A DNA stretch of 64,000 bases from Patescibacteria group bacterium (GTDB taxonomy: Bacteria > Patescibacteriota > Patescibacteriia > UBA9570): NCBI GenBank assembly GCA_041660305.1, contig JBAZWO010000002.1, forward strand, positions 68,739-132,738, given 5' to 3'. The notes beneath the pieces are model-generated. The model had not been told where the DNA came from. It saw only the letters and a list, made by a program, of their open reading frames with translations, and did not search any database. Positions 12,347-61,163 of this stretch are shown piece after piece. Both the position numbers and the translations under genes were made by a program. Position 1 is the first letter of the stretch, and every line of letters begins with the position of its first letter.

Positions 12347-12416
12347 ACTAACTTCATCTTAGCACAATCTTAACACAATGTTGACTAATCACCCAAAACC
12401 TTTATAGTACCTTCAT

Positions 12417-26166: not shown

Positions 26167-26574
26167 TTATTCTTCTATCTGTGTTTTTATCATTTTCCAA
26201 CCGTCAGTGCATTTTTTAGAAACATCATCATAACCAGTTGCAACATGGTCTGATAGTTCATAGCCAACCTTTTCAATATAAGGTGTAGCAATATTATCTA
26301 CAAAACGTTCAACATCAGTAAGATTTAATTTTGTATCATCGTATACTATTCTTAATAGAAAATTTCCATCTTGTTCTTGAGTAATAAATATTTCATTTAT
26401 TTCTTGAGGAGAAACTTCATATAATTGTCGTACTAATTCAGACTGACCTTCAAACAATTCATTTTTTGCATCAAGGCTTTCAGTCTGGGTAGCAGTGCCT
26501 GTTTCTAATGATTTTTTGAAAGCATTTACTTTTTTTATATCTCTTGGTCTTAATAATTCTTCCATTCTAGGCAT
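26167..26574 (-). CDS. Hypothetical protein
   Basis: 135 aa, acidic, no motif recognised. Inside the repeat-bounded insert. Confidence 0.45.
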   Translation of the reverse strand: MPRMEELLRPRDIKKVNAFKKSLETGTATQTESLDAKNELFEGQSELVRQLYEVSPQEINEIFITQEQDGNFLLRIVYDDTKLNLTDVERFVDNIATPYIEKVGYELSDHVATGYDDVSKKCTDGWKMIKTQIEE

Positions 26575-26693
26575 AATAGTAAAATTAATTATTTGTTAGT
26601 ATATAAATTGTAGTCTAAAATTAGCTATTTGTCAACCAAACATAAAAATAAATGTGTAAACTATTTAAATTCTTCCCATTTAAATAGCACTTC

Positions 26694-26784: not shown

Positions 26785-27211
26785 GTTATACCGATGAAGG
26801 TGGGAAATGGTCAGTGACTGCCGATGAAAATGGACAGCATGTAAATACTACTGAATAAATCAGCGTTATCCTTAGTGAACGACCGTTATTGACAAAACGG
26901 CTATTTTAGACTATGGTGGCACCACACAGATAAGGAAATTAGCTTCTCTATAGCTTATCCCAGCTACCATGTTTATAACAACAATAACAAGCAGTTGTAA
27001 ATAAAGTAGTTGGGTATAGCTTATAGAAGCTATACCGAGAGTGGGTTTCGAGTGGGATACTAACTCGAAATAAAGTTGACGGATCAATCTATCGATTCGT
27101 CAAAAGTTGCAGGATCAATCTATCGATCCCCCAATACCACAATCTCCTTATCTGTTTTTCTTTTGTATAAATTTATCCATTAAAATAGCACTTCAAGTAG
27201 CGCCAAGAAGC

Positions 27212-27240
27212 TTGACATTCGTCTAAGAATCGTCTAAAAT
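27212..27240 (+). promoter_or_regulatory. Sigma-70-like promoter of the fic gene
   Basis: TTGACA (27212..27217), a 17-nt spacer, then TAAAAT (27235..27240). CGTCTA occurs three times at an 11-nt period (27220, 27231, 27242). Confidence 0.5.
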
Positions 27241-27261
27241 ACGTCTATAAATTATAGATGT

Positions 27262-28293
27262 ATGTTTGAACCAAAATACACAATTACTAATAAATTGTTG
27301 GCTAATGTTAAACAAATTGGCCAAATTGTTAGTGGTTTAAACGAGCGGCGTTTTCCGCAAGTTGTGTTGTTTGAAATGGAGCGTATAGCGCGTGAGGTTT
27401 CGGCGCATGCTTCAACGAGCATAGAAGGCAATCCTTTACCGTTAACGGACGTAAAGCGTTTGTTGAAACAATCTCCGGCACATATTCGTGACACTGAGCG
27501 GGAAGTGCTAAATTATAACGAAGCCTTATTAGCTTTAAAAAAACAAGTTGATGCCGGAGTGAAAAATTTAGAAAAAGATCATATTCTATTCATTCATCGT
27601 TTAGTGACAAAAAATTTATTAGCCAATTTCAACTCTGGTTTTTTGCGCACTGCGCCGGTATTTGTAAATGATCCAAAATTAAAACAAACGGTTTATTGGC
27701 CACCAGATGCAGTGGACGTGCCAACCTTACTTAATGATTTATTACTGTTTGCAAATACTCAAAAAAATAATATCGATGCTTTGTTATTAGCTGGAATTTT
27801 TCACAAACAATTTGTGTTGATTCACCCGTTTATGGACGGTAATGGCAGAACGGTACGTTTAGCCACCAAGTTATTGTTAGCCGGTTTGGGTTTGGACACA
27901 TTTCATTTGTTTAGTTTCGAACGATATTATAACGCGAATGTTACCAAATATTTTGCTACAGTCGGTGAGCGAGGTAATTATTATGATTTAGCAGTGGATT
28001 TTACCGTTTGGTTAGAATATTTTACCGATGGTATTATTGATGAATTATTACGGGTAAAAGGGGAATTAGAAAAATTTTCACAGGCGCCGGCGGCGGGCTT
28101 AAAAGATTATCATCATTTGATTTTAAATTATTTACATGAGCACGGTTCTATCAATGATGCTATTTATACTACATTAGTATCGCGTGCCAAACCAACGCGA
28201 GCACTAGATTTTCGTTATTTACTAGACCAAGGCTTAATTGAAAGACATAATAAAGGCAAGGCCAGTTATTATTGTTTGAAAGAAGCAAAATGA
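27262..28293 (+). CDS. Fic/DOC-family protein (AMPylase-type) with a C-terminal winged-helix-like region
   Basis: Contains the canonical Fic motif HPFMDGNGRTVR. Confidence 0.85.
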   Translation: MFEPKYTITNKLLANVKQIGQIVSGLNERRFPQVVLFEMERIAREVSAHASTSIEGNPLPLTDVKRLLKQSPAHIRDTEREVLNYNEALLALKKQVDAGVKNLEKDHILFIHRLVTKNLLANFNSGFLRTAPVFVNDPKLKQTVYWPPDAVDVPTLLNDLLLFANTQKNNIDALLLAGIFHKQFVLIHPFMDGNGRTVRLATKLLLAGLGLDTFHLFSFERYYNANVTKYFATVGERGNYYDLAVDFTVWLEYFTDGIIDELLRVKGELEKFSQAPAAGLKDYHHLILNYLHEHGSINDAIYTTLVSRAKPTRALDFRYLLDQGLIERHNKGKASYYCLKEAK

Positions 28294-28664: not shown

Positions 28665-28693
28665 TTGACAATACGTCTACTTTGTGCTAAAAT
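28665..28693 (+). promoter_or_regulatory. Sigma-70-like promoter with an extended -10
   Basis: TTGACA, a 17-nt spacer, then TGC-TAAAAT, 58 nt upstream of the ATG at 28751. Confidence 0.5.
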
Positions 28694-34928: not shown

Positions 34929-36050
34929 ATGAGTAAAGCAAATAATTCAGTCAATAACCATTCAATTTTAGATAAGATTATTGCTAGTAAAGAAGATCAG
35001 GAAAAGCAAGAATTTGCTCCTGACGAAATTATTAGCCAATTATTACGTAATATTACGCCAAAAGAGGCGGATGTTTTGGTACGACGACATGGTTTAAAAG
35101 GTTCAAAAAAAGAAACTTTAGAGGCCATTGGTCAGGCTTACCATGTTACCAGAGAACGAGTACGACAAATAGAAAATTTAGCCATCAAGAAAATTAAGCA
35201 GAATTTAAAGCATTTAGAATTAATTCGGCCAATTGAGCACGTGCTTACCACGGTATTGGATGAACACGGTGGCATGATGAGCGAAACGCATTTATTAGAA
35301 GAATTATTTGCGCTCAATCCAACTTTTAATAATAAACCATCGGTATTATTTTTATTATCTGAATTAGCTGAAGCTAGATTTGATAAAGTAGAGGCTAATG
35401 AGCATTTTGTCCGTTCATGGAAAATTAAAACAGCTGATTTAGATTTTGTAATGACTGCTATTAACATGTTAGCTGAAGTAATTACTAATCATGGTACACC
35501 AATGGAATTGGCACATATTTTAGAACGTTTACAAAGCCATAATTTTTATCAGGCGCAAGCTCAGCGTATTAATCATAAAGTAGTGGTGGCTTATTTGGAA
35601 GTTAGCCGAAAAATTGAAAAGAACCCATTTGGTGAATACGGTTTAACGCATTGGGGCAGTATTATACCTAAACGTATGAATGATAAAATTTTTCTAGTAT
35701 TAAAAAAAGCTGAAAAACCCATGCATTTTGTGGATATCGCTAAGAATATTACGGAAATTTTTAAAAAAGAAGCCTATCCACCAACCGTGCATAACGAATT
35801 AATTTTAAATGATAATTATGTGTTAGTGGGGCGCGGTATTTATGCGTTAACCGAATGGGGTTATCAACGCGGTGTGGTGGCTGATGTGATTGCACAAATA
35901 CTTAAAGAATACGGTAAACCGATGAAACGTGAAGATATTGTAGCTAGGTTAATGAAGCAACGATTAGTGAAACGGAATACTATTCATTTAGCTTTAACGG
36001 ATAAAAAACGTTTTCAACGTTTACCAGATGGCCGCTATACTGTAAAATAA
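34929..36050 (+). CDS. Sigma-70 region-4-like HTH protein with a C-terminal HARE-HTH-like domain
   Basis: ETLEAIGQAYHVTRERVRQIENLAIKKIK is a region 4.2-type HTH. C-terminal segments such as MHFVDIAKNI...VLVGRGIYALTEWGY resemble HARE-HTH. Confidence 0.5.
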   Translation: MSKANNSVNNHSILDKIIASKEDQEKQEFAPDEIISQLLRNITPKEADVLVRRHGLKGSKKETLEAIGQAYHVTRERVRQIENLAIKKIKQNLKHLELIRPIEHVLTTVLDEHGGMMSETHLLEELFALNPTFNNKPSVLFLLSELAEARFDKVEANEHFVRSWKIKTADLDFVMTAINMLAEVITNHGTPMELAHILERLQSHNFYQAQAQRINHKVVVAYLEVSRKIEKNPFGEYGLTHWGSIIPKRMNDKIFLVLKKAEKPMHFVDIAKNITEIFKKEAYPPTVHNELILNDNYVLVGRGIYALTEWGYQRGVVADVIAQILKEYGKPMKREDIVARLMKQRLVKRNTIHLALTDKKRFQRLPDGRYTVK

Positions 36051-39513: not shown

Positions 39514-39610
39514 AAAATAGTTTAGTATAAATTATATTTACATCCCTGTTTAAAAAATTACCTAAAGTTAGATTAAAATAATACATATTAAGATAAACAT
39601 CAAAAACTAT

Positions 39611-39639
39611 TTGACCACGTTTAGATATGAGTTTATGCT
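39611..39639 (+). promoter_or_regulatory. Conserved TTGACC-N17-TATGCT box, copy 1 (upstream of paralog 1)
   Basis: ATTTGACCACGTTTAGATATGAGTTTATGCTGA is nearly identical to 61133..61165 and shares ATTTGACCACGTT plus TTATGCT with 44935..44965. Confidence 0.5.
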
Positions 39640-39646
39640 GAAAATA

Positions 39647-39713
39647 CTACCTCACCCCCCTGCCTACCGGCAGGCAGGCAACCCCTCTCCTCTAAGGAGA
39701 GGGGAATGAGGTA
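39647..39713. repeat. G/C-run palindromic element (R11), between the box and paralog 1
   Basis: CTACCTCACCCCC-CTGCCTACCGGCAGGCAGG-CAACCCCTCTCCTCTAAGGAGAGGGG-AATGAGGTA. Confidence 0.85.
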
Positions 39714-39731: not shown

Positions 39732-41405
39732 ATGTCCAAACCACAATGTGTACAGTGTAGTAAAACATTCGTTATCACGGATAACGACGAACAATTTTAT
39801 CAACGCATTAGTGTTCCTAAGCCAACGCACTGTTCCGATTGCCGGGCACAACGCAGAATGGTTTGGCGCAACGAACGCACATTATATGCACGCGCTTGTG
39901 ATTTGTGTAAAAAGAACATTATTTCTATTTACGATGCCACTAGCCCATGTACTGTATATTGCAATGAATGTTGGCATTCTGATAAATGGAACGCATTGGA
40001 TTATGGGCGAAACATAGATTTTAGCAAACCGCTTTTTGAACAGCTAAAAGAGCTGTATATAAAAGTGCCAAGTATTTATGCCATGGTGGCCAGTAATGAA
40101 AATTCAGAATATACCAATGGTTCATTTTATAATAAAGGCAGTTATTTGATATTTGTCAGCGATCACAACGAAGACTCTATGTATTCTTATTGGATTTTAT
40201 ATTGTAAACAAAGTTTTGATTGTTTAAATACCATTAAAGCAGAGCTTTGTTATGAGTGTATTGGCTGTTCAAGTTGCTATAATGTGCAATATTCAGTGGA
40301 TTGCGCTAACTGCAACGAAAGTAGTTTTTTACTGGATTGCAAAGGTTGCCAAAATTGTTTTATGTCTTATGGATTGCGTAATAAACAGCATGTTTGGCAC
40401 AATAAACAATTAACGCCAGATGAATATAAACAAAAATTAACACAATTACAGCAAGGCAGTTATGAAAAAATTCAACAGCTTAAACAAGAATTTGAAGAAT
40501 TAAAGAAAAAACACACTTTTAAATATTATCATGGCCTGAATAATGAAAATTTTAGCGGTGATTATTTAGAAAGATGCCGCGGTAGTTTTAACTGCTTTGA
40601 AAGTAATGAATTAGAGCAGTGTAATTACGTAATTTTTGGTAACAAAAGCCGGGATTGCCATGATTGCTACGTGGCGGTAGATCAATCAGAATTATGTTAT
40701 GAAGATACTAGCGCGGTGGCTTTGTATAACGTGAAATATTCTTATTTAAATCAACATTTGCGTGATGCGGAATATTGCAATTACTGCAATCACTCCAATA
40801 ATTTATTCGGTTGTAGCGGAGTAACGAAAAATCAATTTTGTATTTTAAATAAACAGTATTCTGAAGTAGAATATCATAAATTAAAAGCCAAATTAATAGA
40901 GCATATGAAACAAACCGGGGAATACGGCCAATATTTTCCTATCAATTTATCGCCATTTGCCTACAATGAAACCGTCGCGCAAGATCAATACCCATTAACT
41001 AAAGAACAAGTGCTAGCTAATGGCTGGATATGGAAAGAACCAAAAGACACAACTGGTAAATATACCGATTTTAGAATTTGCGACAGCATAGCCAGCGTAA
41101 AAGATAATATTTTACAAGAAGTTTTATGCTGTAAACAATGTTATCGTAATTATAAAATTTTACCACAAGAATTAACATTTTATCGCCAATATAATATTCC
41201 TATCCCACGCTTATGTTTTAATTGTCGCCATTTAGCGCGCTTACAGCAAAAAAATCCCCGAGCTTTATGGCAACGCCAGTGCATGTGCACGCAAACCAGC
41301 CATAGCCACAATGGCAGATGTGCAACTGAATTCGAAACTACTTATTCAGATAAGAACCCTACTATAGTATATTGTGAGCAATGCTATATGAAGGAGATAA
41401 ATTAA
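39732..41405 (+). CDS. Cys-rich multi-CxxC protein, family paralog 1 of 11 (function unknown)
   Basis: 557 aa. N-terminal CVQCSKTF..FY..PTHCSDCR..RNER..CDLCKK..VYCNECW. Core has CYECIGCSSCY and FCILNKQYS. C-terminal block FAYNET, CCKQC..FY..CFNCRH, RQCMCTQTSHSHNGRC, YCEQCYMKEIN. Confidence 0.85.
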   Translation: MSKPQCVQCSKTFVITDNDEQFYQRISVPKPTHCSDCRAQRRMVWRNERTLYARACDLCKKNIISIYDATSPCTVYCNECWHSDKWNALDYGRNIDFSKPLFEQLKELYIKVPSIYAMVASNENSEYTNGSFYNKGSYLIFVSDHNEDSMYSYWILYCKQSFDCLNTIKAELCYECIGCSSCYNVQYSVDCANCNESSFLLDCKGCQNCFMSYGLRNKQHVWHNKQLTPDEYKQKLTQLQQGSYEKIQQLKQEFEELKKKHTFKYYHGLNNENFSGDYLERCRGSFNCFESNELEQCNYVIFGNKSRDCHDCYVAVDQSELCYEDTSAVALYNVKYSYLNQHLRDAEYCNYCNHSNNLFGCSGVTKNQFCILNKQYSEVEYHKLKAKLIEHMKQTGEYGQYFPINLSPFAYNETVAQDQYPLTKEQVLANGWIWKEPKDTTGKYTDFRICDSIASVKDNILQEVLCCKQCYRNYKILPQELTFYRQYNIPIPRLCFNCRHLARLQQKNPRALWQRQCMCTQTSHSHNGRCATEFETTYSDKNPTIVYCEQCYMKEIN

Positions 41406-41644
41406 TAATTATTATAAGTATTATCAGAGCGTTGTTCTAGGGCTAAAATAAAAATGTCATGATTAGTAACTCGAAAAATGATGCGATATTTTCCTTTGCG
41501 AACACGGTAAATATTAACTTGTCCTTTTAAACGCTTGCAATCTAAATTAGCGTATTGGCCGGCATTTATTTGTAGGAGTAATTGTTTAAAAAGCACCTGC
41601 TCTTTAGGTGTTAAGCGTAATAATGCTTTAGTGATTTTATCCAT
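41402..41644 (-). CDS. RelE/ParE-family toxin-like protein
   Basis: 80 aa with the IYRVRKGKYRIIFRV...ILALEQRSDNTY pattern, typical of RelE/ParE. An upstream antitoxin-sized ORF is present. Confidence 0.55.
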   Translation of the reverse strand: MDKITKALLRLTPKEQVLFKQLLLQINAGQYANLDCKRLKGQVNIYRVRKGKYRIIFRVTNHDIFILALEQRSDNTYNNY

Positions 41645-41665
41645 AACTTATAGAGATGTTTTACG

Positions 41666-41884
41666 CTATAAGCGATTTAGTAATTCATTAATATTTACAC
41701 CGCCTTTATGTAGTTTTGTAAAGTCAATTACTTCTTCCCATAGTTCATCGGTGATAGGGGAGATTTTAAAAACTGGTTCACTGCGACGATAAACAACAAA
41801 TGATTGTCCGGTTTGAACTTGTTGTATATAGGTATCCATATTTTCTCGCAATTTTTTTAAATAAATAATTTGTTTAGTAGTCAT
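41666..41884 (-). CDS. Putative antitoxin (Phd/YefM-like)
   Basis: 72 aa, encoded 21 nt upstream of the RelE-like gene on the same strand. The N-terminal IYLKKLRENMDTYIQQVQTGQSFVVYRRSEPVFKISP resembles Phd/YefM. Confidence 0.45.
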   Translation of the reverse strand: MTTKQIIYLKKLRENMDTYIQQVQTGQSFVVYRRSEPVFKISPITDELWEEVIDFTKLHKGGVNINELLNRL

Positions 41885-44774: not shown

Positions 44775-44936
44775 GATCTTTTTAATCGTCATTTTGAGTT
44801 ACATAGAAGCTTTTTAGTGTTGAGGATTGTTATTATCAATTAATTGTAGTACAATATAGTTTGACATTGATAGTTTAAAATATTAGCTAATTTTAGATTT
44901 ATATTTAGTTATACACAGATTAAAATATAAACCTAT

Positions 44937-44965
44937 TTGACCACGTTAAACCTTAACCTTATGCT
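44937..44965 (+). promoter_or_regulatory. Conserved TTGACC-N17-TATGCT box, copy 2 (at the TrmB-like gene)
   Basis: ATTTGACCACGTTAAACCTTAACCTTATGCT. The TATGCT contains the ATG (44961) that best fits the TrmB-like N-terminus, so its role as promoter or operator is unresolved. Confidence 0.4.
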
Positions 44966-45737
44966 TACAACGAAGTTAAAACAAGATCTTTTAAAACTAG
45001 GGTTATCCGATAACGAGATAAAATTTTACGTAGCCGGCTTAGAATTAGGCTTAGCTACTATTCCCCAAATTGCCGAGCGAGCCAGTTTATCGCGCATGAG
45101 CGGCTATAATATTTTTAAAACGCTTAGCCAAAAAGGGATGGCCGATATGGATGTGCGTAGCTACGGCCAGAAATGCAAAGTGGCTAAACCGGCTAAGTTG
45201 CTAACGCTGTTTGAAGACACTAGAAAAAGCATGGATAAATTAGCGACAAATTTACCAAATTTAATCGGCGAATTAAATGTACTATATGCCAGCGTGCCGG
45301 AAGATTTAGAGATTCATTATTTTCGAGCCAAAGAAGCCGTTACCAAAATTTGGGATGAAGCGTTAACGAACACCAAAAAAGGCGATGACATTCTCACGTT
45401 ATCAGCTGTGGATTTCGCGCCAACATTTGGTGAGCAATACGTGGAATTTTTGGAAGAACTGGCGTTGCGCTGTAACGAAAAGGGCATTCATCATAAGATG
45501 ATATTGGAAAAAACCGGCACCTATACTTTAGAGCGGCGAGTCATCACGGAATTGTTTCCAGAATCAGTCCAGATGAAATTAGGCGCCACTTGCGAGCAAA
45601 TGGTGTACGCGGATTATGTAGCTTATATTTTTCCCGGCCGTGAATTATTTGGTATTTCAATTCATAACCGCGAATTAGCCAATCATCATTCCAGGATTTT
45701 CTATACGCTGTGGAATAAGATGTATAACGTCGGGTAA
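44961..45737 (+). CDS. TrmB-family HTH transcriptional regulator
   Basis: LLKLGLSDNEIKFYVAGLELGLATIPQIAERASLSRMSGYNIFKTLSQKGM is a TrmB-type wHTH. The start is uncertain (track start is TTG at 44937). Confidence 0.7.
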   Translation: MLTTKLKQDLLKLGLSDNEIKFYVAGLELGLATIPQIAERASLSRMSGYNIFKTLSQKGMADMDVRSYGQKCKVAKPAKLLTLFEDTRKSMDKLATNLPNLIGELNVLYASVPEDLEIHYFRAKEAVTKIWDEALTNTKKGDDILTLSAVDFAPTFGEQYVEFLEELALRCNEKGIHHKMILEKTGTYTLERRVITELFPESVQMKLGATCEQMVYADYVAYIFPGRELFGISIHNRELANHHSRIFYTLWNKMYNVG

Positions 45738-45801: not shown

Positions 45802-47484
45802 ATGTTAACAAAACAATGTGTCCAATGTAATAAAACCTTTAAGATCGATGATCGGGATTTAGAATTTTACAAAAAAATTACAGTATCACAGCCAACGCAT
45901 TGCCCGGATTGTCGGCAACAAAGACGTCTTGCTCAAATAAATCAATTATTTTTGTATTCTAGAAAGTGTAATGTTACAGGTAAAACGTTAATTTCCAATC
46001 ATCATACGGATCAGCCCTATCCAGTGTATGATTCGGCCTACTGGCATAGCGATCAATGGGATCCAACCGAGTATGGTCGTGATTTTGATTTTGCTCGGCC
46101 ATTTTTTGAGCAATGGCAAGAGTTGAGTAGAGTAGTGCCTCGGCCGGCATTAACTACCGCTTATGAATTTGATCAAAATTCACCCTATACAAATTATGCT
46201 GGTAAAAATAAAAACTGCTACATGATTTTTGATTCTGATGAAAACGAAGATTGTTATTATTCGTATAGTTTAAATTCTTGTAAACAGTGTTTGGATTGTT
46301 ATCGTAGTCGTAAACTTGAATTATGTTATGAATGTGTTGATTGTACAGAGTGTTATGGAAGTTGGTTTCTGCAGGATTGTGTGCAATGCAATTTTAGCAC
46401 GCTCTTAAAAGATTGTGTGGATGTGTCTAACTCTATTATGTGTGTTGGTTTACGGCATAAGGAATATTATATTCTTAATAAACCGGTTGCTAAAGAAGTA
46501 TTTGAAAAAACGTTGCAAGACTTAAAAAGTCGCCATAACTTGAAAAAATATCGTCAACAATTTACAGACTTTGTATTGAAATTTCCAAATAAATTTATGC
46601 ACGGCAGTCAGAATGAAAAAAGTTTTGGTGATTATTTATTACATTGTCAAAATGCTTCGAATTGTTACGATTCAAGTGATTTAGAGAAGTGTAGTTATAT
46701 TTATCAAGCATTTGGTAATGCGAAAGATAGTATGGATTGTGATGAAATTGGTATGAATGCAGAGTTAATGTATGAATGTACTAATGTAGGCTATACGTCT
46801 TATGGTACACAATTTTCTATGGACGCATTATCAGATATTATTAATGTTACTTACAGTGATTACTGTTTTCATTCACAAAATTTATTTGGTTGTATTGGTA
46901 TGAATAAACGTAAATTTTGTATTCTAAACAAGCAGTACAGTGAAAGTGATTATCAGCAGTTGCGCGATAAAATTATTGAACACATGCGAACAACAGGGGA
47001 ATGGGGAGAATTTTTTCCAATCACTACTTCGTCATTTGCTTATAATGAAACACTAGCTCAAAGCTATTACCCACTAACCGAACTGCAAGCTAAAAATAAA
47101 GGATATCACTGGCGCATCCAGGTATTACCGGCCACTAGTGAATCGCAGGCGGTTTTACCAGCTACAGCCGCTGAGATTACACCAGAATTAGTTAAGCACA
47201 TTTTTACGTGTATTCAGTGTAGTCGGAAATATAAATTTTTAAGCCAAGAATTAGTGATGTACCAAGCGGCCGGTATTCCCTTACCTACTCAATGTTTTTA
47301 TTGTCGCAACACTGTTCGACAACAACAACGTAATCCACGTCAATTGTGGCAGCGCCAGTGCATGTGTACACAAATAGATCATAATCATCAAGGTAGGTGT
47401 ACTAATAAATTTCCCACTACCTATAGTCCTGACAGAGTTGAGTTAGTATATTGTGAACAGTGTTATCAAAAAGAAATTTATTAA
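45802..47484 (+). CDS. Cys-rich multi-CxxC protein, paralog 2 of 11 (second N-terminal CxxC pair lost)
   Basis: 560 aa with the family blocks FCILNKQYS, FAYNET, RQCMCTQIDHNHQGRC and CYQKEIY. CNVTGK...VYDSAYW replaces CDLCKK...VYCxxCW. Confidence 0.85.
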   Translation: MLTKQCVQCNKTFKIDDRDLEFYKKITVSQPTHCPDCRQQRRLAQINQLFLYSRKCNVTGKTLISNHHTDQPYPVYDSAYWHSDQWDPTEYGRDFDFARPFFEQWQELSRVVPRPALTTAYEFDQNSPYTNYAGKNKNCYMIFDSDENEDCYYSYSLNSCKQCLDCYRSRKLELCYECVDCTECYGSWFLQDCVQCNFSTLLKDCVDVSNSIMCVGLRHKEYYILNKPVAKEVFEKTLQDLKSRHNLKKYRQQFTDFVLKFPNKFMHGSQNEKSFGDYLLHCQNASNCYDSSDLEKCSYIYQAFGNAKDSMDCDEIGMNAELMYECTNVGYTSYGTQFSMDALSDIINVTYSDYCFHSQNLFGCIGMNKRKFCILNKQYSESDYQQLRDKIIEHMRTTGEWGEFFPITTSSFAYNETLAQSYYPLTELQAKNKGYHWRIQVLPATSESQAVLPATAAEITPELVKHIFTCIQCSRKYKFLSQELVMYQAAGIPLPTQCFYCRNTVRQQQRNPRQLWQRQCMCTQIDHNHQGRCTNKFPTTYSPDRVELVYCEQCYQKEIY

Positions 47485-47493
47485 TTTTTATTG

Positions 47494-47521
47494 GTAGAGA
47501 CGCGCTGCAGCGCGTCTCTAC
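47494..47521. repeat. Perfect 28-nt GC-rich palindrome between paralogs 2 and 3
   Basis: GTAGAGACGCGCTGCAGCGCGTCTCTAC is identical to its own reverse complement. Confidence 0.9.
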
Positions 47522-47533
47522 CTCCCAGAGATT

Positions 47534-49216
47534 ATGCTAACCAAACAATGTATCCAATGCAGTAAAACTTTCAAAATCACCGATACTGATTTGGTGTTTT
47601 ATGAAAAAATAGATGTGCCAGAGCCAACTCAATGTCCAAAATGCCGTTTAATCCGTCGGCTGTTAGAACGCAATGCCAGAGTTTTATATAAAAGAAAATG
47701 TGATTTTAGTGGCAAAATTATCATTTCGCAGTTTCACGAAAAACAACCATTTCCGGTATACGATCAAAATATTTGGTGGAGCGATAAATGGGAAGCTTTA
47801 GATTATGGACGTGAAATTGATTGGACACGATTATTTTTTAAACAATTTCAGGAATTATCAAATGTTGTGCCGCACATGTCGGTGTTCATTATTGGCGGTA
47901 CATTAGAAAATAGCGATTATACTAATTGCACGGGGTATTTAAAAGACTGTTATTTAGTATCCGAAGCTGATTATAATGAAAATTGTTATTATTCTAACCG
48001 TTTTTATCACAGCAAAGACTTGGTTGATTGTTCCGAAGGTTACCAGAATGAATTGTGCTATGAATGTATCGATTGTTCTAATTGCTATCAAACATTTTAT
48101 TCGCAAGAAAGCAAATATTGTCTAAATAGTTATTTTTTATATAATTGCCAGGATTGTAAAGATTGTATTGGTTGTATCAATCAACGCCATAAACAATACC
48201 TGATATTTAATAAGCAATATTCTCAAATAGAATATGAGCGTTTAAAACAAGAGTTTAAATTAGATGTCAGAACGGGCATTGAACAATTACGGGTCAAATC
48301 TCAACAATTTTTTGTAACGCAAATTTATAAACACTTGCAAGTGGAAAAAAATGTTTCTAGTTTCGGTGATCATTTATATCAATCAAACAATGCGCAATTT
48401 TGTTTTGATGGTTCTAAATTAGAGAATTGTAAATATTGTACCAAAATACTCGAAGCTAAAGACTGTATGGATCACACTTCTTGGGGAATTCAAGCGGAAT
48501 TAACCTATCAATGCGCGGCTTGCGGCGACCATATTAATAATATGAAATTTTGTAGTACGTGTACAACTAATTTAACCAATTGTGAATATTGTTATTCATG
48601 TGTTAAATCTTCAGATTTATTTGGTTGTGTTGGCTTAACAAATAAGCAGTATTGCATTTTAAATAAACAATATGCAAAAGAAGATTATTTTATTTTAAAA
48701 GAAAAGCTGATTCAGCATATGAAAAAAACAGGTGAGTATGGCGAATTTTTTCCGTTGGATTCGTGTCCTTTTGCGTATAACGAGACAATAGCCATGGATT
48801 ATTTTCCTTTAACTAAATCAGAAGCTTTACAGCAAGGTTATCACTGGTATGAAGAAGAAAAAAATATTTTACCACAAACATATAAATTAGCTGATAGTAT
48901 AGCGGCTGTTAATAATGACATTTTAGATAATGTTTTAGTTTGTACAACATGCGGCAAGAATTACAAAATTATCAAGCAAGAGTTTGATTTTTATAAAAAG
49001 TTGAACATCCCGGTGCCTAATAAATGTTATACTTGTCGGCATTTAGCCAGAATCAAATTACGCAATCCTATTGAATTATGGCGCCGGCAATGCATGTGTA
49101 CCCAACCAATGCACCAGCATCAAGGCAGATGCACCGTTGAATTTGAAACAAATTTTGCACCAGACAGGAAAGAAATAGTTTATTGTGAACAATGTTATAA
49201 CAAAGAAATATATTAG
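47534..49216 (+). CDS. Cys-rich multi-CxxC protein, paralog 3 of 11 (second N-terminal CxxC pair lost)
   Basis: 560 aa. CDFSGK...VYDQNIW replaces the second ribbon. Has YCILNKQYA, FAYNET, RQCMCTQPMHQHQGRC and CYNKEIY. Confidence 0.85.
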   Translation: MLTKQCIQCSKTFKITDTDLVFYEKIDVPEPTQCPKCRLIRRLLERNARVLYKRKCDFSGKIIISQFHEKQPFPVYDQNIWWSDKWEALDYGREIDWTRLFFKQFQELSNVVPHMSVFIIGGTLENSDYTNCTGYLKDCYLVSEADYNENCYYSNRFYHSKDLVDCSEGYQNELCYECIDCSNCYQTFYSQESKYCLNSYFLYNCQDCKDCIGCINQRHKQYLIFNKQYSQIEYERLKQEFKLDVRTGIEQLRVKSQQFFVTQIYKHLQVEKNVSSFGDHLYQSNNAQFCFDGSKLENCKYCTKILEAKDCMDHTSWGIQAELTYQCAACGDHINNMKFCSTCTTNLTNCEYCYSCVKSSDLFGCVGLTNKQYCILNKQYAKEDYFILKEKLIQHMKKTGEYGEFFPLDSCPFAYNETIAMDYFPLTKSEALQQGYHWYEEEKNILPQTYKLADSIAAVNNDILDNVLVCTTCGKNYKIIKQEFDFYKKLNIPVPNKCYTCRHLARIKLRNPIELWRRQCMCTQPMHQHQGRCTVEFETNFAPDRKEIVYCEQCYNKEIY

Positions 49217-49239
49217 GCCCCCTAACCCCCTGAAGGGGG
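49217..49239. repeat. Short G/C-run hairpin (R14)
   Basis: GCCCCCTAACCCCCTGAAGGGGG starts at the base after the stop codon. The same sequence occurs at 50893..50915. Confidence 0.8.
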
Positions 49240-49254
49240 AAAATACAAATATTT

Positions 49255-50892
49255 ATGAATAAACAATGTAAAAATTGCAACAAAACGTTCAAGATCGATG
49301 ATCAAGATTTGGAATTTTACAAAAAGATGCAAGTACCACAACCAACTCATTGTCCGGATTGCCGGCAACAGCGGCGATTGGCGTGGCGGAATGAAAGAAA
49401 ATTATATGCGCGCACTTGCGATCTATGTAAAAAATCTATCATTTCAATTTATTCACCAGAATCTCTTTATCTAGTGTATTGCCAAGAGTGTTGGTGGAGT
49501 GATCGATGGGATGCTTTGCAATATGGTCGACAATTTGATTTTAACCGTCCTTTTTTTGAGCAGTTTCACGATTTGCAATTGCAGGTGCCACGTTTAGCCT
49601 TATTTAACTTACATAGTATCAACAGCGAGTATACCAATCATTCATTTGATAATAAAAATTGTTATATGGGGGTAGCGTTTGGTGGTTGTGAAGATTGCTA
49701 TTATGGACAGTGGTTGCTAAATTCACGTAATTGTCTTGATTGTTTATATCTCACTGATTGTGAATTATGTTATGAATGTTCTTATTGTAATAATTGTTAT
49801 CAAACTTATTGGTCGCAGCATTGTGATAACATGCAGAATAGTTTATTATGTTTTGAATGTCGAGACTGCGCCAATTGTTTAGGCTGTGTTCAGTTGCAAC
49901 ATCAACAGTATGCCATCTTAAATAAAACTGTGTCAGTTAATGAATTTAATCAGCAGAAGCAAGTAATATTAAATGATCCAAAGAAATTTCAAGAGCTACA
50001 AAAAGCTTATGAAGTTTTAAAATTAAAAACACCTCGGCGCTGGAGCTTACAGGTGAATTGTGAAAATTGTACCGGTAATGATTTGTATTATAGTACTAAT
50101 GCTAACGCTTGCTTTCATTGTCGTAAAGTGCAGAATTGTAAATATGTTTATGATGCTGTAAATAACATTGATTGTTTTGATTCTTATGAACATGGTTGGG
50201 ATATTGCCAGCCAGTTAATTTATGAAACACATGCTGGTATGGCTGGTTATAATTTAAAATTTTGCCATATTTGTGCCGAAAGTAGAGATCTGGAATATTG
50301 TGATTGCTGTTTTAGTAATTCAGTCAATTTATTTGGTTGTGTTGGTTTGAAAAATCAGAAATTTGTTATTTTAAATAAACAATATTCTGAAACAGATTAT
50401 TTTAAAATGAAAAATGAAATTATTAAGCACATGTCTGGCGGAAAACAAACAAGAGAATACGGCGAATTTTTTCCCATCAAATATTCACCGTTTGCTTATA
50501 ATGAAAGCGTAGCACAAGAATATTTTCGTTTAAATAAAACAGAAGTTTTACGTAAGCGATGGTACTGGCGTGATGAGGTGGTTCAGCAGAAACAAACAAT
50601 AGGTAATTTTCTTACTTGCCAAAGTTGCCAGCAATTTTATCGTTTAATTCCTCAGGAAATAAAATTTTATCAACAAATTAGTGTTAAGGCACCAAAATAT
50701 TGCCCAGATTGTAGACATTTACAGCGCATGCGTTTGCGTAATTCAAGACAGCTTTGGCACCGCCAATGTATGTGCACTCAACCGGATCATAATCATAACG
50801 GGCGTTGTGCTACCGAATTCGAAACCACTTATTCACCGGACAGGAAAGAACTAATTTACTGTGAACAGTGTTACAACAAAGAAATATATTAG
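49255..50892 (+). CDS. Cys-rich multi-CxxC protein, paralog 4 of 11
   Basis: 545 aa. I count 45 Cys. Full N-terminal four-CxxC module, FVILNKQYS, FAYNES, RQCMCTQPDHNHNGRC and CYNKEIY. Confidence 0.85.
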   Translation: MNKQCKNCNKTFKIDDQDLEFYKKMQVPQPTHCPDCRQQRRLAWRNERKLYARTCDLCKKSIISIYSPESLYLVYCQECWWSDRWDALQYGRQFDFNRPFFEQFHDLQLQVPRLALFNLHSINSEYTNHSFDNKNCYMGVAFGGCEDCYYGQWLLNSRNCLDCLYLTDCELCYECSYCNNCYQTYWSQHCDNMQNSLLCFECRDCANCLGCVQLQHQQYAILNKTVSVNEFNQQKQVILNDPKKFQELQKAYEVLKLKTPRRWSLQVNCENCTGNDLYYSTNANACFHCRKVQNCKYVYDAVNNIDCFDSYEHGWDIASQLIYETHAGMAGYNLKFCHICAESRDLEYCDCCFSNSVNLFGCVGLKNQKFVILNKQYSETDYFKMKNEIIKHMSGGKQTREYGEFFPIKYSPFAYNESVAQEYFRLNKTEVLRKRWYWRDEVVQQKQTIGNFLTCQSCQQFYRLIPQEIKFYQQISVKAPKYCPDCRHLQRMRLRNSRQLWHRQCMCTQPDHNHNGRCATEFETTYSPDRKELIYCEQCYNKEIY

Positions 50893-50915
50893 GCCCCCTA
50901 ACCCCCTGAAGGGGG
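50893..50915. repeat. Short G/C-run hairpin (R15)
   Basis: Identical to 49217..49239 and part of the 88-bp identity block 50875..50962. Confidence 0.8.
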
Positions 50916-50930
50916 AAAATACAAATATTT

Positions 50931-52607
50931 ATGAATAAACAATGTAAAAATTGCAACAAAACCTTCAAGATCACCGATCAAGATTTGGCGTTTTATGAAA
51001 AGATCAATGTGTCAATACCGACTCATTGCCCGGATTGTCGGTTACAGCGCCGGTTGGCCTGGCGGAATGAGCGCACTCTTTATGCCAGAACATGTGATTT
51101 GTGTCATAAAAAAATTCTAGCGCTTTATCCAAAAAACAGTTCGTACAAAGTTTATTGCCATGATTGTTATTGGGGAGACAGTTGGTCTGGTTTAGAAGAT
51201 GGTCGAGAGTTTGATTTTGATAAACCATTTTTTGAGCAGTACACTGAGTTGATAAAAAAATTACCTCATCCTGCCGCTTACAACGATCAAATTGAAAATA
51301 GTGAATACATTAATTACTGTTATGGTGCCAAAAATTGTTATTTATTATTTGGTTCAGATGAAAATGAAGATTGTTATTATTGTACTCATGTTAAAAATTG
51401 CGTAAACTGCATCGATTGCATAACATCAGATCATCTGGAATTATGCAGTAATTGTGTTGATTGTTCGTATAGCTATAATACTCACTACGCACAAGAAAGC
51501 CATCAACTGCGGGATTGCTATTTCAATTTTGATTGTAAGAACTGCTCTAATTGTTTTGGTTCGGCGGGATTAAGAAATAAGCAATTTATTTTATTCAACA
51601 AACAAGTGTCGGCCGAAGAATATCACAAACAAGTTGATGATATGTTAAAGAAGCACACTGTGGCAGAACTATATAAAATGGCGGAGCAGACCAGATTAAA
51701 AAATCCATGCCAACCGGCTATAATTATAGCTAGCCATAATAGCAGTGGAGACCATTTGCATAATTGTTCTAACGCTCAACAATGTTTCGATAGCAATGAC
51801 ATAATTGATGCAAAATATATTTATTATGTTAATGGTAAAGCGTTTGATTGCATGGATGTATACGGCGGTGGCTTTAACTATGAACAATGTTACGAGTTTA
51901 TTGTTGGCATTGGCCACAATTTGCATTTTAGCATGTTGTGTTGGAAATCCGTATATAATATTGCTTATTCGATTCTTACAAACAACGCGCACGATTGTTT
52001 TGGTTGTTTTTCTTTAAAAACCGGACAATACGCTATTTTTAACAAACAATATTCAGCTTCTGATTACAGTCAGTTAAAAAATAAAATTATCCATCACATG
52101 AAGCAAACTGGCGAGTGGGGAGAGTTTTTTCCGGTAGAAAAATCAATTTTTGCTTATAATGAAACTAACGCGCAAATAGAATTTCCATTAAATAAAACAA
52201 CCGTGCAACAACGTAATTGGCGGTGGACGGATACTATATATGTAACCACTGGTAAAGAAACGGCTGATATAAATAAAACGGCAACTTTTGCCCCATTGCT
52301 AAATAATAATATCACCAAAAATATTTATAAATGCAGTACTTGTGAGAGAAATTTTAAAATATTAGGTCAAGAATTTATTTTTTATCAGCGTCAGAAAATT
52401 TTCATTCCGGTAGATTGTTACGAATGCCGCTTTGTTAAATTGTACAAAAAACGTAATTCATATCAAATTTGGCATCGCCAATGCATGTGCACTCAGATTG
52501 ATCATAATCATCAAGGCCGGTGTGCTACAGAATTCGAAACAACTTATGCACCAGACAGAAAAGAATTAATTTATTGTGAACAGTGTTATCAAAAGGAAAT
52601 ATATTAA
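50931..52607 (+). CDS. Cys-rich multi-CxxC protein, paralog 5 of 11
   Basis: 558 aa with the family blocks YAIFNKQYS, FAYNET, RQCMCTQIDHNHQGRC and CYQKEIY. Confidence 0.85.
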   Translation: MNKQCKNCNKTFKITDQDLAFYEKINVSIPTHCPDCRLQRRLAWRNERTLYARTCDLCHKKILALYPKNSSYKVYCHDCYWGDSWSGLEDGREFDFDKPFFEQYTELIKKLPHPAAYNDQIENSEYINYCYGAKNCYLLFGSDENEDCYYCTHVKNCVNCIDCITSDHLELCSNCVDCSYSYNTHYAQESHQLRDCYFNFDCKNCSNCFGSAGLRNKQFILFNKQVSAEEYHKQVDDMLKKHTVAELYKMAEQTRLKNPCQPAIIIASHNSSGDHLHNCSNAQQCFDSNDIIDAKYIYYVNGKAFDCMDVYGGGFNYEQCYEFIVGIGHNLHFSMLCWKSVYNIAYSILTNNAHDCFGCFSLKTGQYAIFNKQYSASDYSQLKNKIIHHMKQTGEWGEFFPVEKSIFAYNETNAQIEFPLNKTTVQQRNWRWTDTIYVTTGKETADINKTATFAPLLNNNITKNIYKCSTCERNFKILGQEFIFYQRQKIFIPVDCYECRFVKLYKKRNSYQIWHRQCMCTQIDHNHQGRCATEFETTYAPDRKELIYCEQCYQKEIY

Positions 52608-52660
52608 GCCCCCTAACCCCTCTTCGAGCCAGAGCCTCAGAGCCGATGGCCTGAAGGGGG
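52608..52660. repeat. G/C-run element (R16)
   Basis: GCCCCCTAACCCCTCTTCGAGCCAGAGCCTCAGAGCCGATGGCCTGAAGGGGG has the same ends as R14/R15, with an extra ~28-nt internal segment. Confidence 0.7.
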
Positions 52661-52671
52661 AATAAAATATT

Positions 52672-54354
52672 ATGTCAACAAAACAGTGTGTTCAATGCAA
52701 CAAAACCTTCCAGATCGATGATCATGATTTAGCGTTTTATAAAAAAATGCAGGTGCCACAGCCGACCCATTGCCCGGATTGCCGGTTGCAAAGAAGATTG
52801 GCGTTTCGTAACGAACGAAACCTTTATCAGCGCACTTGTGATTTAACTGGCAAACCAATTTTATCGGCGTTTAGTTTGGACAAGCCGTTTCCGGTATATA
52901 GCATAGAGGCTTGGTGGTTAGATAAATGGAACGCGTTGGATTATGGCAGGGAATATGATTTTAATAAAGCTTTTTTTGAACAGTATCGCGAATTGCAAGC
53001 TAAAGTGCCGCGCTTAGCTTTGCAGCAGCAACAGCCAATGGAAAATAGTGAGTACTGCAATTGCGCCAGCCGTAATAAAAATTGCTATTTAGTTTTTTCT
53101 ACCAATCAATGCGAGGATTGTTACCATGGTTCATGGGTGAACTCTTCTAAGAATTGCGTGGACAGCTATGATATTCTTAATTGCGAACTGTGTTATGAAA
53201 ATATTGATTGTCTGCATTGTTATAATTGTAGTTACGCGCAAGATAACCGTGATTGCACGGATTGTTATTTTATTAAAAATTGCGTTGGCAGTAATAATTT
53301 GGCTTTTTGCACGAATTTAGTCAATGCCAGTTATCAGATTTTTAATAAACCGGTGAGTCCGGAACAATTTGCTGTTTGGGTGAAAGCCTTGCGAGCGGCT
53401 ACTAGTGAAACATGGCGGCAGTATCAGCAAGATTATTTAAACTTGATAAAAAAATCATTTGTTCGTTTCTACCAAGGCGCGCGCAATGAAGCATCAACCG
53501 GTAATTATATTTATAATTGCCATCAGTGCGCGGATTGTTTTCTAGTTACCTCGGCTGAACAACTGCGTTATTGCGCGCATTTGGAGTTTGTTAAAGACGC
53601 GATGGATTATACGTATTGGGGGCAACAAGCCGAATTAATGTATGAAGTGATTGGCTCCGGCTATCAGGTAAACAATTTAAAATTTTGCGTGTTATGCTGG
53701 TCGGGCTGTAAAAATTTAGAATATTGCGATCATTGTTTTTCCTGCCAAGATTGTTTCGGTTGCGTCGGTTTAAAAAAACAGCAATACTGCATATTAAATA
53801 AACAATTCACAAAAAGCGCGTATGAAATAATGGTTAATAAAATAAAAGCTCAAATGCGAAAAAATAAAGAGTATGGTGAATTTTTTCCAGTAAGTTGCTC
53901 GCCGTTTGCCTACAATGAGTCATTGGCTAATGATTTTTTTCCTTTATCTGAAGCGCAAGTAGCACGGCATGGTTGGCAGTGGAAAATGAAAAATAGCAGT
54001 GATTATCAGACACAGCAGTATAAAATTCCGCCACATATTTTAAACGTGCCGGATAATATAGTAAAAGAATTATTGGCTTGCGAGCTGTGCGGAAAAAATT
54101 ATAAGATTGTTCTTCCGGAATTGCAATTTTATCGTACACAATTATTGCCAATACCAACTTTGTGTCCGGAGTGTCGCCATTTAGCGCGCGTGCACCGCCG
54201 GCCCGGTTATGCCATTTGGTCGCGCCGCTGCATGTGCACTCAACCGATGCACAAACATAGTGGCCGGTGCGACCTAGAAGTTTCTACCGCCTATTCGCCG
54301 GATAAACCAGAATTAATTTACTGTGAGGAGTGTTATCAAAAAGAAATTTATTAA
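52672..54354 (+). CDS. Cys-rich multi-CxxC protein, paralog 6 of 11 (second N-terminal CxxC pair lost)
   Basis: 560 aa. CDLTGK...VYSIEAW replaces the second ribbon. Has YCILNKQFT, FAYNES, RRCMCTQPMHKHSGRC and CYQKEIY. Confidence 0.85.
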   Translation: MSTKQCVQCNKTFQIDDHDLAFYKKMQVPQPTHCPDCRLQRRLAFRNERNLYQRTCDLTGKPILSAFSLDKPFPVYSIEAWWLDKWNALDYGREYDFNKAFFEQYRELQAKVPRLALQQQQPMENSEYCNCASRNKNCYLVFSTNQCEDCYHGSWVNSSKNCVDSYDILNCELCYENIDCLHCYNCSYAQDNRDCTDCYFIKNCVGSNNLAFCTNLVNASYQIFNKPVSPEQFAVWVKALRAATSETWRQYQQDYLNLIKKSFVRFYQGARNEASTGNYIYNCHQCADCFLVTSAEQLRYCAHLEFVKDAMDYTYWGQQAELMYEVIGSGYQVNNLKFCVLCWSGCKNLEYCDHCFSCQDCFGCVGLKKQQYCILNKQFTKSAYEIMVNKIKAQMRKNKEYGEFFPVSCSPFAYNESLANDFFPLSEAQVARHGWQWKMKNSSDYQTQQYKIPPHILNVPDNIVKELLACELCGKNYKIVLPELQFYRTQLLPIPTLCPECRHLARVHRRPGYAIWSRRCMCTQPMHKHSGRCDLEVSTAYSPDKPELIYCEECYQKEIY

Positions 54355-54357
54355 AAT

Positions 54358-54397
54358 CCTACCTCACCCCCAGCCCCTCTCCTGTTCAGGAGAGGGG
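54358..54397. repeat. G/C-run palindromic element (R17)
   Basis: CCTACCTCACCCCCAGCCCCTCTCCTGTTCAGGAGAGGGG is identical to 56099..56138. Confidence 0.85.
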
Positions 54398-54415
54398 AGA
54401 AATGCAAAAATATTT

Positions 54416-56095: not shown

Positions 56096-56098
56096 AAA

Positions 56099-56138
56099 CC
56101 TACCTCACCCCCAGCCCCTCTCCTGTTCAGGAGAGGGG
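56099..56138. repeat. G/C-run palindromic element (R18)
   Basis: Identical to R17 and part of the identity block 56072..56248. Confidence 0.85.
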
Positions 56139-56156
56139 AGAAATGCAAAAATATTT

Positions 56157-57776: not shown

Positions 57777-57780
57777 ATTT

Positions 57781-59448: not shown

Positions 59449-59452
59449 ATTT

Positions 59453-61048: not shown

Positions 61049-61134
61049 TCCAACCATTTTTTACATGTTTGCTAATTTAATTATCTTAATCTAGCTAAAA
61101 AATTGGTATAATTTTAAGTCATGTAAAAAAGCAT

Positions 61135-61163
61135 TTGACCACGTTTAGGTATGAGATTATGCT
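61135..61163 (+). promoter_or_regulatory. Conserved TTGACC-N17-TATGCT box, copy 3 (6 nt upstream of the paralog 11 ATG)
   Basis: TTGACC (61135..61140), a 17-nt spacer, TATGCT (61158..61163), then GAGAAC and the ATG at 61170. A second candidate -10, TGGTATAAT, lies at 61104..61112. Confidence 0.5.

Follow-up and report, generated by a model that had tools for sequence, protein, structure and literature searches.

The window analysed here is a 64,000-nt stretch of the genome of a Patescibacteria group bacterium (GenBank assembly GCA_041660305.1, contig JBAZWO010000002.1, positions 68,739 to 132,738). A 13-nt motif, ATTTGACCACGTT, occurs in it three times: before a gene of a cysteine-rich protein family (paralog 1), at the gene for a TrmB-like regulator (trmB), and before a further family member (paralog 11). 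This 13-mer is probably the -35 hexamer TTGACC, with its conserved flanks, of a family-specific sigma-70-type promoter, P2 (TTGACC-N17-TATGCT), set within a composite module. The core finding is an ordinary promoter type that is real, conserved, and of a familiar kind. A transfer-messenger RNA at 1483-1882 marks the window as bacterial, and homologs of the TrmB-like protein are labelled Patescibacteria or Candidatus Kerfeldbacteria.

Conservation of the proposed promoter P2 and of the surrounding module

Exact matches to ATTTGACCACGTT were found only on the + strand (39609-39621, 44935-44947, and 61133-61145; n=3); 100 shuffles that preserve dinucleotides averaged 0.00, and allowing up to two mismatches added no copies in the window. 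In all three copies, TTATGCT follows after exactly 11 nt, which places the paired hexamers TTGACC-N17-TATGCT at 39611-39639, 44937-44965, and 61135-61163. A preliminary description of this DNA had reported the motif with a downstream TATGCT at three sites, and both the association and the placement of the sites before paralog 1 (39732), at trmB, and before paralog 11 (61170) hold. Its distance of 17-18 nt is correct for the spacer between the hexamers (N17) but not for the interval from the end of the 13-mer to TTATGCT, which is 11 nt.

Copies 1 and 3, described as nearly identical over about 36 nt, indeed share 33/36 positions from the motif through 5 nt beyond TATGCT, but only 48/88 in the 90 nt upstream. 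Because paralogs 1 and 11 have diverged to 45% protein, 54.6% DNA, and 40.6% third-codon-position identity, this likeness is not the residue of a recent gene duplication; the 36-nt identity is peculiar to the window genome. A search for TTTGACCACGTT-N11-TTATGCT in 185,579 species genomes, a set without the source genome, returned two chance matches, in Bryobacterales and Syntrophomonadaceae. Across 262 kb comprising the window and related loci, TTGACCAC occurs 21 times: modules account for 14 occurrences, all on the gene strand, a module remnant for 1, and coding regions for 6.

Contigs carrying TrmB orthologs at 58-85% identity were collected from 12 related Patescibacteria assemblies, with ERZ27249449, SRR6484324, and SRR22387810 among the contig sources; a metagenome scan using the TrmB alignment yielded only 4 further loci. 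In nearly all of the TrmB-ortholog contigs, TTTGACCAC[G] lies 24-30 nt upstream of the ATG. An nhmmer profile built from 15 trmB-upstream regions and run over the window and the related loci recovered 23 modules with a unit of about 120 nt (E-values 2e-25 to 1.6e-6), of which 15 precede trmB and 8 precede stand-alone paralog genes. Three of these are in the window (profile matches 39519-39637, 44842-44963, and 61051-61161), and the 20 copies in the 12 related assemblies bear out the conservation that the preliminary description had proposed to check. That description overlooked what surrounds the motif: the 13-mer is one box (G) of an upstream module of about 125 bp with rigid spacing. The boxes, with consensus sequences partly taken from an alignment of 22 module copies (A2; 14 trmB-type and 8 paralog-type), are as follows.

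A box: consensus TAGTATAAT, in A2 TAGTATAA(T)
B box: consensus TTGACATC
D box: CTAA-N2-TTAG palindrome
F box: AAATATAA or AATCTAAAA, A/T-rich
G box: TTTGACCACG, the 13-mer with the -35
H box: TAnnnT, the -10

In this clade of uncultured Patescibacteria, every transcription unit of the cysteine-rich family is preceded by one module; the three units in the window are paralog 1, trmB with paralogs 2-10, and paralog 11.

39519 to 39639, + strand: module copy 1, before paralog 1 (nhmmer E-value 3.7e-10, A2, geometry); A 39524-39531 AGTATAAA, B 39537-39544 TTTACATC, D 39562-39571 CTAAAGTTAG, F 39597-39605 (A-rich), G 39609-39621 with the -35 at 39611-39616, H 39634-39639 TATGCT
44842 to 44965, + strand: module copy 2, at the TrmB-like gene (nhmmer E-value 1e-19, A2, geometry); A 44848-44855, B 44861-44868 TTGACATT, D 44887-44896 CTAATTTTAG, F 44923-44931 AAATATAAA, G 44935-44947 with the -35 at 44937-44942, H 44960-44965 TATGCT, which holds the ATG at 44961
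61051 to 61163, + strand: module copy 3, before paralog 11 (nhmmer E-value 6.5e-10); B 61060-61067 TTTACATG, paired with TATCTT 61082-61087, D 61085-61094 CTTAATCTAG (degenerate), F 61121-61129, G 61133-61145 with the -35 at 61135-61140, H 61158-61163 TATGCT

Pairwise identity is 67-87% in the boxes and 34-43% in the gaps between them, which are essentially saturated. Spacing is identical in all 14 aligned trmB-type modules (A-B 11, B-D 26, D-F 39, F-G 11, and B-G 76 nt) and slightly shorter in paralog-type modules (B-D 25, D-F 38, and B-G 74 nt, with B-G 75 in window copy 3). The H box follows the G box after 16-18 bp. The F box, which is 70% identical, starts 11 bp ahead of TTGAC in 22/22 modules, and its position and composition fit a UP-like element, for which an A/T-rich block at about -38 to -59 is expected.

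Phylogenetic footprinting strongly supports the sigma-70-type geometry proposed in the preliminary description. TTGAYN-N16-18-TAnnnT was found in 23/23 modules, including the most divergent one, L010 (TTGATT-17-TATTAT), and the invariant A2 columns are TTGA and the T, A, and T of TAnnnT (T-12, A-11, and T-7). The bases read by sigma-70 are TTGA(C) and the T, A, and T of the -10. All three window copies have TTGACC as the -35, a 5/6 match to the consensus, and its C is at least 90% conserved over the 22 aligned modules. The spacer between the hexamers is saturated at 40% identity across species, and outside the hexamers only about four bases are conserved clade-wide (T-36, A-29, C-28, and G-27). 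In three related loci (L005, L008, and L013), the trmB ATG has moved 5 nt downstream and another hexamer (TACGGT or TAACCT) holds its place 16-17 nt from TTGACC; because the hexamer keeps its distance when the ATG shifts, it is tied to the -35 and not to the start codon. TTGACA-N17-TAnnnT also lies upstream of at least seven unrelated genes in the window, so the hexamers are generic to the organism, and what is family-specific is just the extension, a T preceding TTGAC and A, C, and G following it. This conservation, geometry, and spacing were read directly from the alignments, and from them we infer that RNA polymerase uses the sites and where transcription would start.

Among known promoters, the closest comparison is rrnB P1 of Escherichia coli, a group 1 sigma-70 promoter with a proximal UP element. 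It shares a TTGACA-like -35, a 16-18 bp spacer, T-12/A-11/T-7, and an A/T-rich block immediately upstream of the -35, where the C-terminal domain of the RNA polymerase alpha subunit binds. Unlike rrnB P1, the module has four more conserved positions around the -35, and in all copies a single helical turn separates its A/T block from the -35. The predicted promoter is also locked at a fixed distance (74-76 bp) from a palindrome and a second TATAA-N6-TTGAC unit. Extracytoplasmic function (ECF)-type and Bacteroidetes-type promoters were considered and set aside, as their motifs do not fit. The idea that F is itself a -10 paired with a separate -35 was likewise rejected, there being no conservation 17 nt upstream of F. 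Small open reading frames within the module were also dismissed: stop-free stretches reach at most 21-39 codons, and a spacing of 74 versus 76 bp argues against coding.

Two further elements lie between the D and F boxes. A2 columns 66-79 (44909-44922 in the window) contain TTTTC[CA]ACAG-N3-4-(G/A)AAA, a weak TTTTC/GAAAA inverted repeat present only in the trmB-type modules of the closer clade (the window, L005, L007, L008, L013, L020, and L010). It has no counterpart in paralog-type modules and may be a site specific to trmB. A consensus extended -10, TGGTATAAT, is unique to copy 3 (61104-61112) and would be an extra promoter with a start near 61119, about 50 nt ahead of paralog 11.

Start codons at P2 in trmB and in the paralog genes

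The genes served by, or adjoining, the three modules are listed below, together with a predicted upstream promoter of the trmB module, P0.

39732 to 41405, + strand: paralog 1, of the ~560-aa cysteine-rich family, with an N-terminal treble-clef zinc finger (sub-threshold Pfam match)
44827 to 44855, + strand: P0 of the trmB module, TTGTTA 44827-44832, N17, TACAAT 44850-44855 (the A box)
44961 to 45737, + strand: TrmB-like regulator gene, 258 aa (Pfam TrmB, E-value 3.5e-8; gene call of the source annotation)
45802 to 61048, + strand: paralogs 2-10, tightly packed after trmB, with no module or motif copy between them
61170 to 62849, + strand: paralog 11, predicted to be leaderless
62854 to 63597, - strand: second TrmB-like gene, convergent with paralog 11, with no module upstream

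The preliminary description had remarked that TATGCT overlaps the best-fitting ATG of the regulator gene and that a simple promoter reading fails there. Both statements are true. The ATG at 44961 sits inside the TATGCT of P2; this start is called by the source annotations and fixed by the N-terminal alignment of 17 orthologs. A set of 33 orthologs of the TrmB-like protein are named Patescibacteria or Kerfeldbacteria. The arrangement is conserved, with the start codon inside or abutting the H hexamer in 15/15 trmB-type modules (offsets -5, -2, and 0). Ten modules read TATG[CA]T, two read TAGTAT|G or TATTAT|G, and three read TACGGT|ATG or TAACCT|ATG. No alternative in-frame ATG, GTG, or TTG was found between the predicted P2 transcription start site and the helix-turn-helix (HTH) region. 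Leaderless expression of trmB from P2 or from a -10 in the spacer was rejected, as there is no downstream start codon before the HTH and no conserved -10 in the spacer. With the ATG within or against the -10 in 15/15 modules, P2 cannot express trmB.

A complete upstream promoter, either P0 (a good -35 followed by the A box in the role of the -10) or P1 (the B box with TAnnnT at 16-17 nt), was found in 13/14 trmB-type but only 1/8 paralog-type modules, which is the distribution expected if P2 cannot express trmB. In the window, P0 is the best candidate promoter for the trmB start codon. A P2 transcript at trmB would begin at about codon 3-5 and would serve only paralogs 2-10, which are presumed to form one operon with trmB. 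The regulator gene itself would be transcribed from the upstream promoter, with the transcript reading through boxes B, D, F, and G and P2. We infer from this arrangement a division of labour between the upstream promoter, for trmB, and P2, for the array.

Tandem promoter regions are familiar from gal P1/P2 and rrn P1/P2, which likewise have two or three same-direction promoter-like units within about 120 bp and regulator sites between or over them. The trmB module differs in that the downstream promoter leaves out the start codon of the operon's first gene, the regulator, and in that the inter-promoter distance is invariant across species. A regulator start codon inside the -10 of the array promoter is an unusual uncoupling of a regulator from the operon it heads and, if true, the arrangement would be a useful addition to known promoter architectures.

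The stand-alone paralogs show a different geometry. In 5/8 paralog-type modules, the ATG lies 6, 7, 9, 9, and 9 nt past the H hexamer without a Shine-Dalgarno sequence, which predicts leaderless mRNAs for these five genes: P2 would start transcription on the ATG or no more than about 3 nt away from it. At paralog 11, the ATG begins 6 nt after H (7-9 nt in four orthologous copies), and the predicted transcription start site is the A of its ATG. The other three modules have leaders of 92 nt (paralog 1), 54 nt, and 67 nt. This layout resembles promoters of leaderless mRNAs such as lambda cI from PRM and those of many Actinobacteria and Deinococcus genes, in which the -10 lies about 7 nt before the ATG. 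Differences from these are the 54-92 nt leaders of paralog 1 and two orthologous copies and, at trmB, an ATG too far upstream for a P2 transcript. We know of no demonstration of leaderless translation in Patescibacteria, and a full-text literature search found no paper joining Patescibacteria, promoter, and leaderless.

Elsewhere in the window, an unrelated promoter at 12381-12408 is followed after 8 nt by an ATG, the same leaderless spacing. It belongs to a divergent gene pair 70 nt apart (12346-12417) with a -10-like hexamer 8-9 nt before each ATG (TATAGT+8; TGCTAAGAT+9), which suggests that leaderless transcripts may be common in the genome.

The 92-nt leader of paralog 1 consists almost entirely of an inserted hairpin resembling repetitive extragenic palindromic (REP) elements.

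39647 to 39712, + strand: GC-rich REP-like branched hairpin between P2 and the paralog 1 ATG (minimum free energy -40.3 kcal/mol, z -6.65)

The leader was probably gained secondarily by insertion of this hairpin into a leaderless arrangement like that of copy 3. CCTCTCC-N5-GGAGAGG forms a dispersed intergenic family with 8 copies in the window versus 0 expected (2572, 9971, 17813, 18860, 28603, 34828, 39684, and 45768), and related hairpins lie at 47500-47530, 49217-49254, 50893-50930, and 52608-52671. Their cores are often within CCTACCTC...GAGGTAGG arms. The elements are GC-rich in an otherwise AT-rich genome, have no T-tract following, and separate many genes, tandem paralogs included.

Operator, RNA, and duplication readings of the 13-mer

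Several observations weigh against a plain promoter reading of P2. TATGCT is a mediocre -10 (4/6), and a consensus scan of the AT-rich window gave 42 promoter-like sites versus 37.3 in shuffles; since the scan does no better than shuffles, the promoter case rests on conservation and not on match score. The conserved non-hexamer bases and the fixed 74-76 bp B-G distance would be superfluous for a plain promoter and suggest one or more further bound proteins. At the regulator gene, P2 firing a few codons into the coding region would leave an untranslated leader of about 780 nt, which is awkward. Finally, the modules are related by descent, so that 23/23 and 13/14 versus 1/8 are not independent observations.

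On a second, unlikely reading, the 13-mer serves mainly as the operator of one of the two TrmB-like regulators, and the promoter look is incidental or the operator overlaps the -35. By binding TTTGACCACG at each of the three units, the regulator would repress its own gene along with the paralogs. The family-specific extension beyond the hexamer, the copy at the start of the regulator gene, and the rigid box spacing would all suit such a site, as would the 33/36 identity of copies 1 and 3 over the whole P2 core, spacer included. Across species, however, this spacer is not conserved (40% identity), and the invariant bases, 16-18 bp apart, are exactly the sigma-70 contacts (TTGAC and the T, A, and T of the -10). 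The G box itself has no dyad or direct-repeat symmetry: its flanks pair at 55.8% versus 53.5% in shuffled sequences (86/500), no better than in shuffles or slid controls, and the dyad of a dimeric winged HTH protein was not found. The operator reading is also favoured by an isolated TTTGACCACG without a -10 partner in locus L020 (10870), between trmB and the next paralog. This copy is part of a lone TTAGATTTGACCACG (L020:10861-10878) in a 165-nt gap, which resembles half of a D box joined to a G box and represents a module that has collapsed or else a binding site in its own right.

Known TrmB operators offer a further comparison. The Thermococcales glycolytic motif (TGM) is TATCAC-N5-GTGATA. 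The 13-mer resembles neither this element nor the TrmB site of Halobacterium salinarum, TACT-N7-8-GAGTA (PMC2710871). As in those systems, a TrmB-like HTH gene lies directly at the site, beside genes carrying the site, but the 13-mer is asymmetric and shares no sequence with the known operators, and the bacterial proteins described here match archaeal TrmB models only through the N-terminal HTH, far below curated cut-offs. The shared operator and autoregulation suggested in the preliminary description drew support from none of the tests run, given the lack of a dyad and of likeness to TrmB sites and extra conservation amounting to about four bases. The 13-mer itself could act as an operator in addition to its putative promoter function.

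More operator-like than the 13-mer is the CTAA-N2-TTAG palindrome (D box) of the same module. It lies 40 nt upstream of the motif, over the -10/+1 region of the B-box promoter; its inner four pairs are invariant, and it occurs 6 times in the window versus 1.4 expected. It is the better operator candidate. As an RNA helix the palindrome was rejected, because the inner four pairs are merely invariant and the outer pairs lack significant covariation, which leaves a DNA palindrome. Winged-helix repressors of the CopY/BlaI type bind the cop box, TACANNTGTA (PMC7253601). The D box resembles the cop box in being a 4-N2-4 palindrome that overlaps a promoter -10/+1 region, and the second TrmB-like protein weakly matches the Penicillinase_R and CopY models, below cut-offs; the half-site sequences differ, and the resemblance is offered as a lead.

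A longer form of the palindrome, the 13-nt sequence AGCTAATTTTAGA, which contains CTAA-N2-TTAG, occurs exactly at 44885-44897 (+ strand), the D box of the trmB module, and at 26614-26626 (- strand), that is, 2 times versus 0.28 expected. The latter copy lies in the spacer of TTGACA-N17-TACAAT, the promoter of a gene at 26167-26574 (- strand) with a weak phasin-like match, and a spacer much like it, CTATTTTAGAC, is present in the divergent promoter at 26889-26917. AGCTAATTTTAGA could be a shared operator.

It is extremely unlikely that the 13-mer acts in RNA, as a UUGACC hairpin loop near the start codon in a 5' leader that would serve protein binding, processing, or translational control. At trmB the motif is necessarily in the 5' untranslated region of an upstream-initiated transcript, and inverted repeats of 5-7 bp and varying sequence flank TTGACC in several orthologs (ACACTGT/ACAGTGT in L014, GCCGT/ACGGC in L009, AAACGT/ACGTTT in L012, and also in L019). 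Over the 22 aligned modules, however, the flank helix scored a covariation of 0.167 versus 0.145 in controls (98/500), RNAalifold predicted 0 pairs for the module, and Rfam gave only chance-level matches (E-values 0.33 and 0.96). The window copies allow only 3-4 weak pairs, and an RNA-level role leaves the invariant TAnnnT at 16-18 nt and the leaderless ATG spacing unexplained. The TTGACC-loop hairpin, attractive in five orthologs, was rejected, since it does not rise above shuffled or slid controls on the 22 modules.

A very unlikely reading is that the 13-mer is a repeat without a function of its own, left by duplication or spread by gene conversion within the tandem array. Conversion does appear to act there: along more than 100 nt, the paralog 3/4 junction closely matches the 4/5 junction, and the 6/7 junction that of 7/8, although the genes have only about 42-47% protein identity, and the 33/36 identity of copies 1 and 3 could have arisen in the same way. 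The same boxes, however, recur at orthologous sites in 12 further assemblies, with TrmB proteins only 58-85% identical and between-box sequence 34-43% identical; as the boxes are conserved across species, conversion inside one genome does not explain them. The near-identical junctions themselves (49165-49290 versus 50840-50965 and 54300-54420 versus 56040-56160) each cover a gene 3' end, a spacer hairpin, and the next 5' end, which indicates local gene conversion or a recent two-gene duplication confined to the junctions.

Gene neighbourhood and wider context

The synteny of the locus is conserved: a protein with a sigma-70 region 4 and a HARE-HTH domain, DUF8128, a TrwB-like ATPase, a stand-alone paralog with its module, variable genes, and trmB with its module and the paralog array. 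The first of these, encoded at 34929-36050 (+ strand), is a 373-aa protein with an N-terminal sigma-70 region 4 and a C-terminal HARE-HTH/RNAP-delta-like domain but no regions 2 or 3. It contains VTRERVRQIE, the -35-reading helix of primary sigma factors, and its best NCBIfam/PADLOC match, MzaA, is through region 4 only. The protein heads the cluster, followed by DUF8128 and the TrwB-like protein, in the window and in L006, L012, and L020. Speculatively, this protein could bind the two TTGAC boxes.

A broader and rather improbable reading would make the module a fixed-geometry nucleoprotein platform and switch, formed by two TATAA-N6-TTGAC units 74-76 bp apart with the palindrome between them, at which the region-4-only protein would compete or cooperate with sigma-70 at the TTGAC boxes; one or both TrmB-like proteins could participate. 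If this were true, the position of the trmB start codon within the P2 -10 would mean that the upstream promoter could express the regulator, or P2 the array without the regulator, but never both together, and the locus would be a hard-wired, clade-conserved switch.

To our knowledge, experiments have so far revealed almost nothing about how transcription is controlled in Patescibacteria (the candidate phyla radiation, CPR). The promoter reading makes the locus a compact testable unit, with clade-wide promoter footprints, predicted leaderless transcripts, a candidate palindromic operator, and two adjacent candidate regulators. Its predicted targets are eleven ancient paralogs in tandem array, all from an uncharacterised cysteine-rich family, and next to the array is a TrwB-like coupling ATPase. 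The unit is of value mainly as a well-defined starting point for the study of transcription control in this group.

The eleven ~560-aa cysteine-rich paralogs share 39-48% protein identity and are old. Searches of NCBIfam, PADLOC, and PDB sequences gave no match for the family, and Pfam returned only the sub-threshold treble-clef hit. An AlphaFold model built from the 11 paralogs (predicted local distance difference test, pLDDT, 66.5; predicted template modelling score, pTM, 0.70) had no Foldseek match in the PDB at an E-value below 1. The second TrmB-like protein is a full-length distant paralog of the first, with 23% identity.

Between paralog 1 and the trmB unit, a ParE-like toxin/Phd-YefM-like antitoxin pair (weak Pfam matches) is inserted at 41402-41884 (- strand), followed by two unannotated membrane proteins and a coiled-coil protein; this segment varies among relatives. 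Farther upstream, the promoter of a Fic-domain gene (27212-27262) carries three CGTCTA(A) direct repeats over its spacer, -10, and +1 region, and the promoter of the next unit, a YkuD/FG-GAP gene (28665-28693), also has ACGTCTA in its spacer. The CGTCTA repeats are a separate candidate operator.

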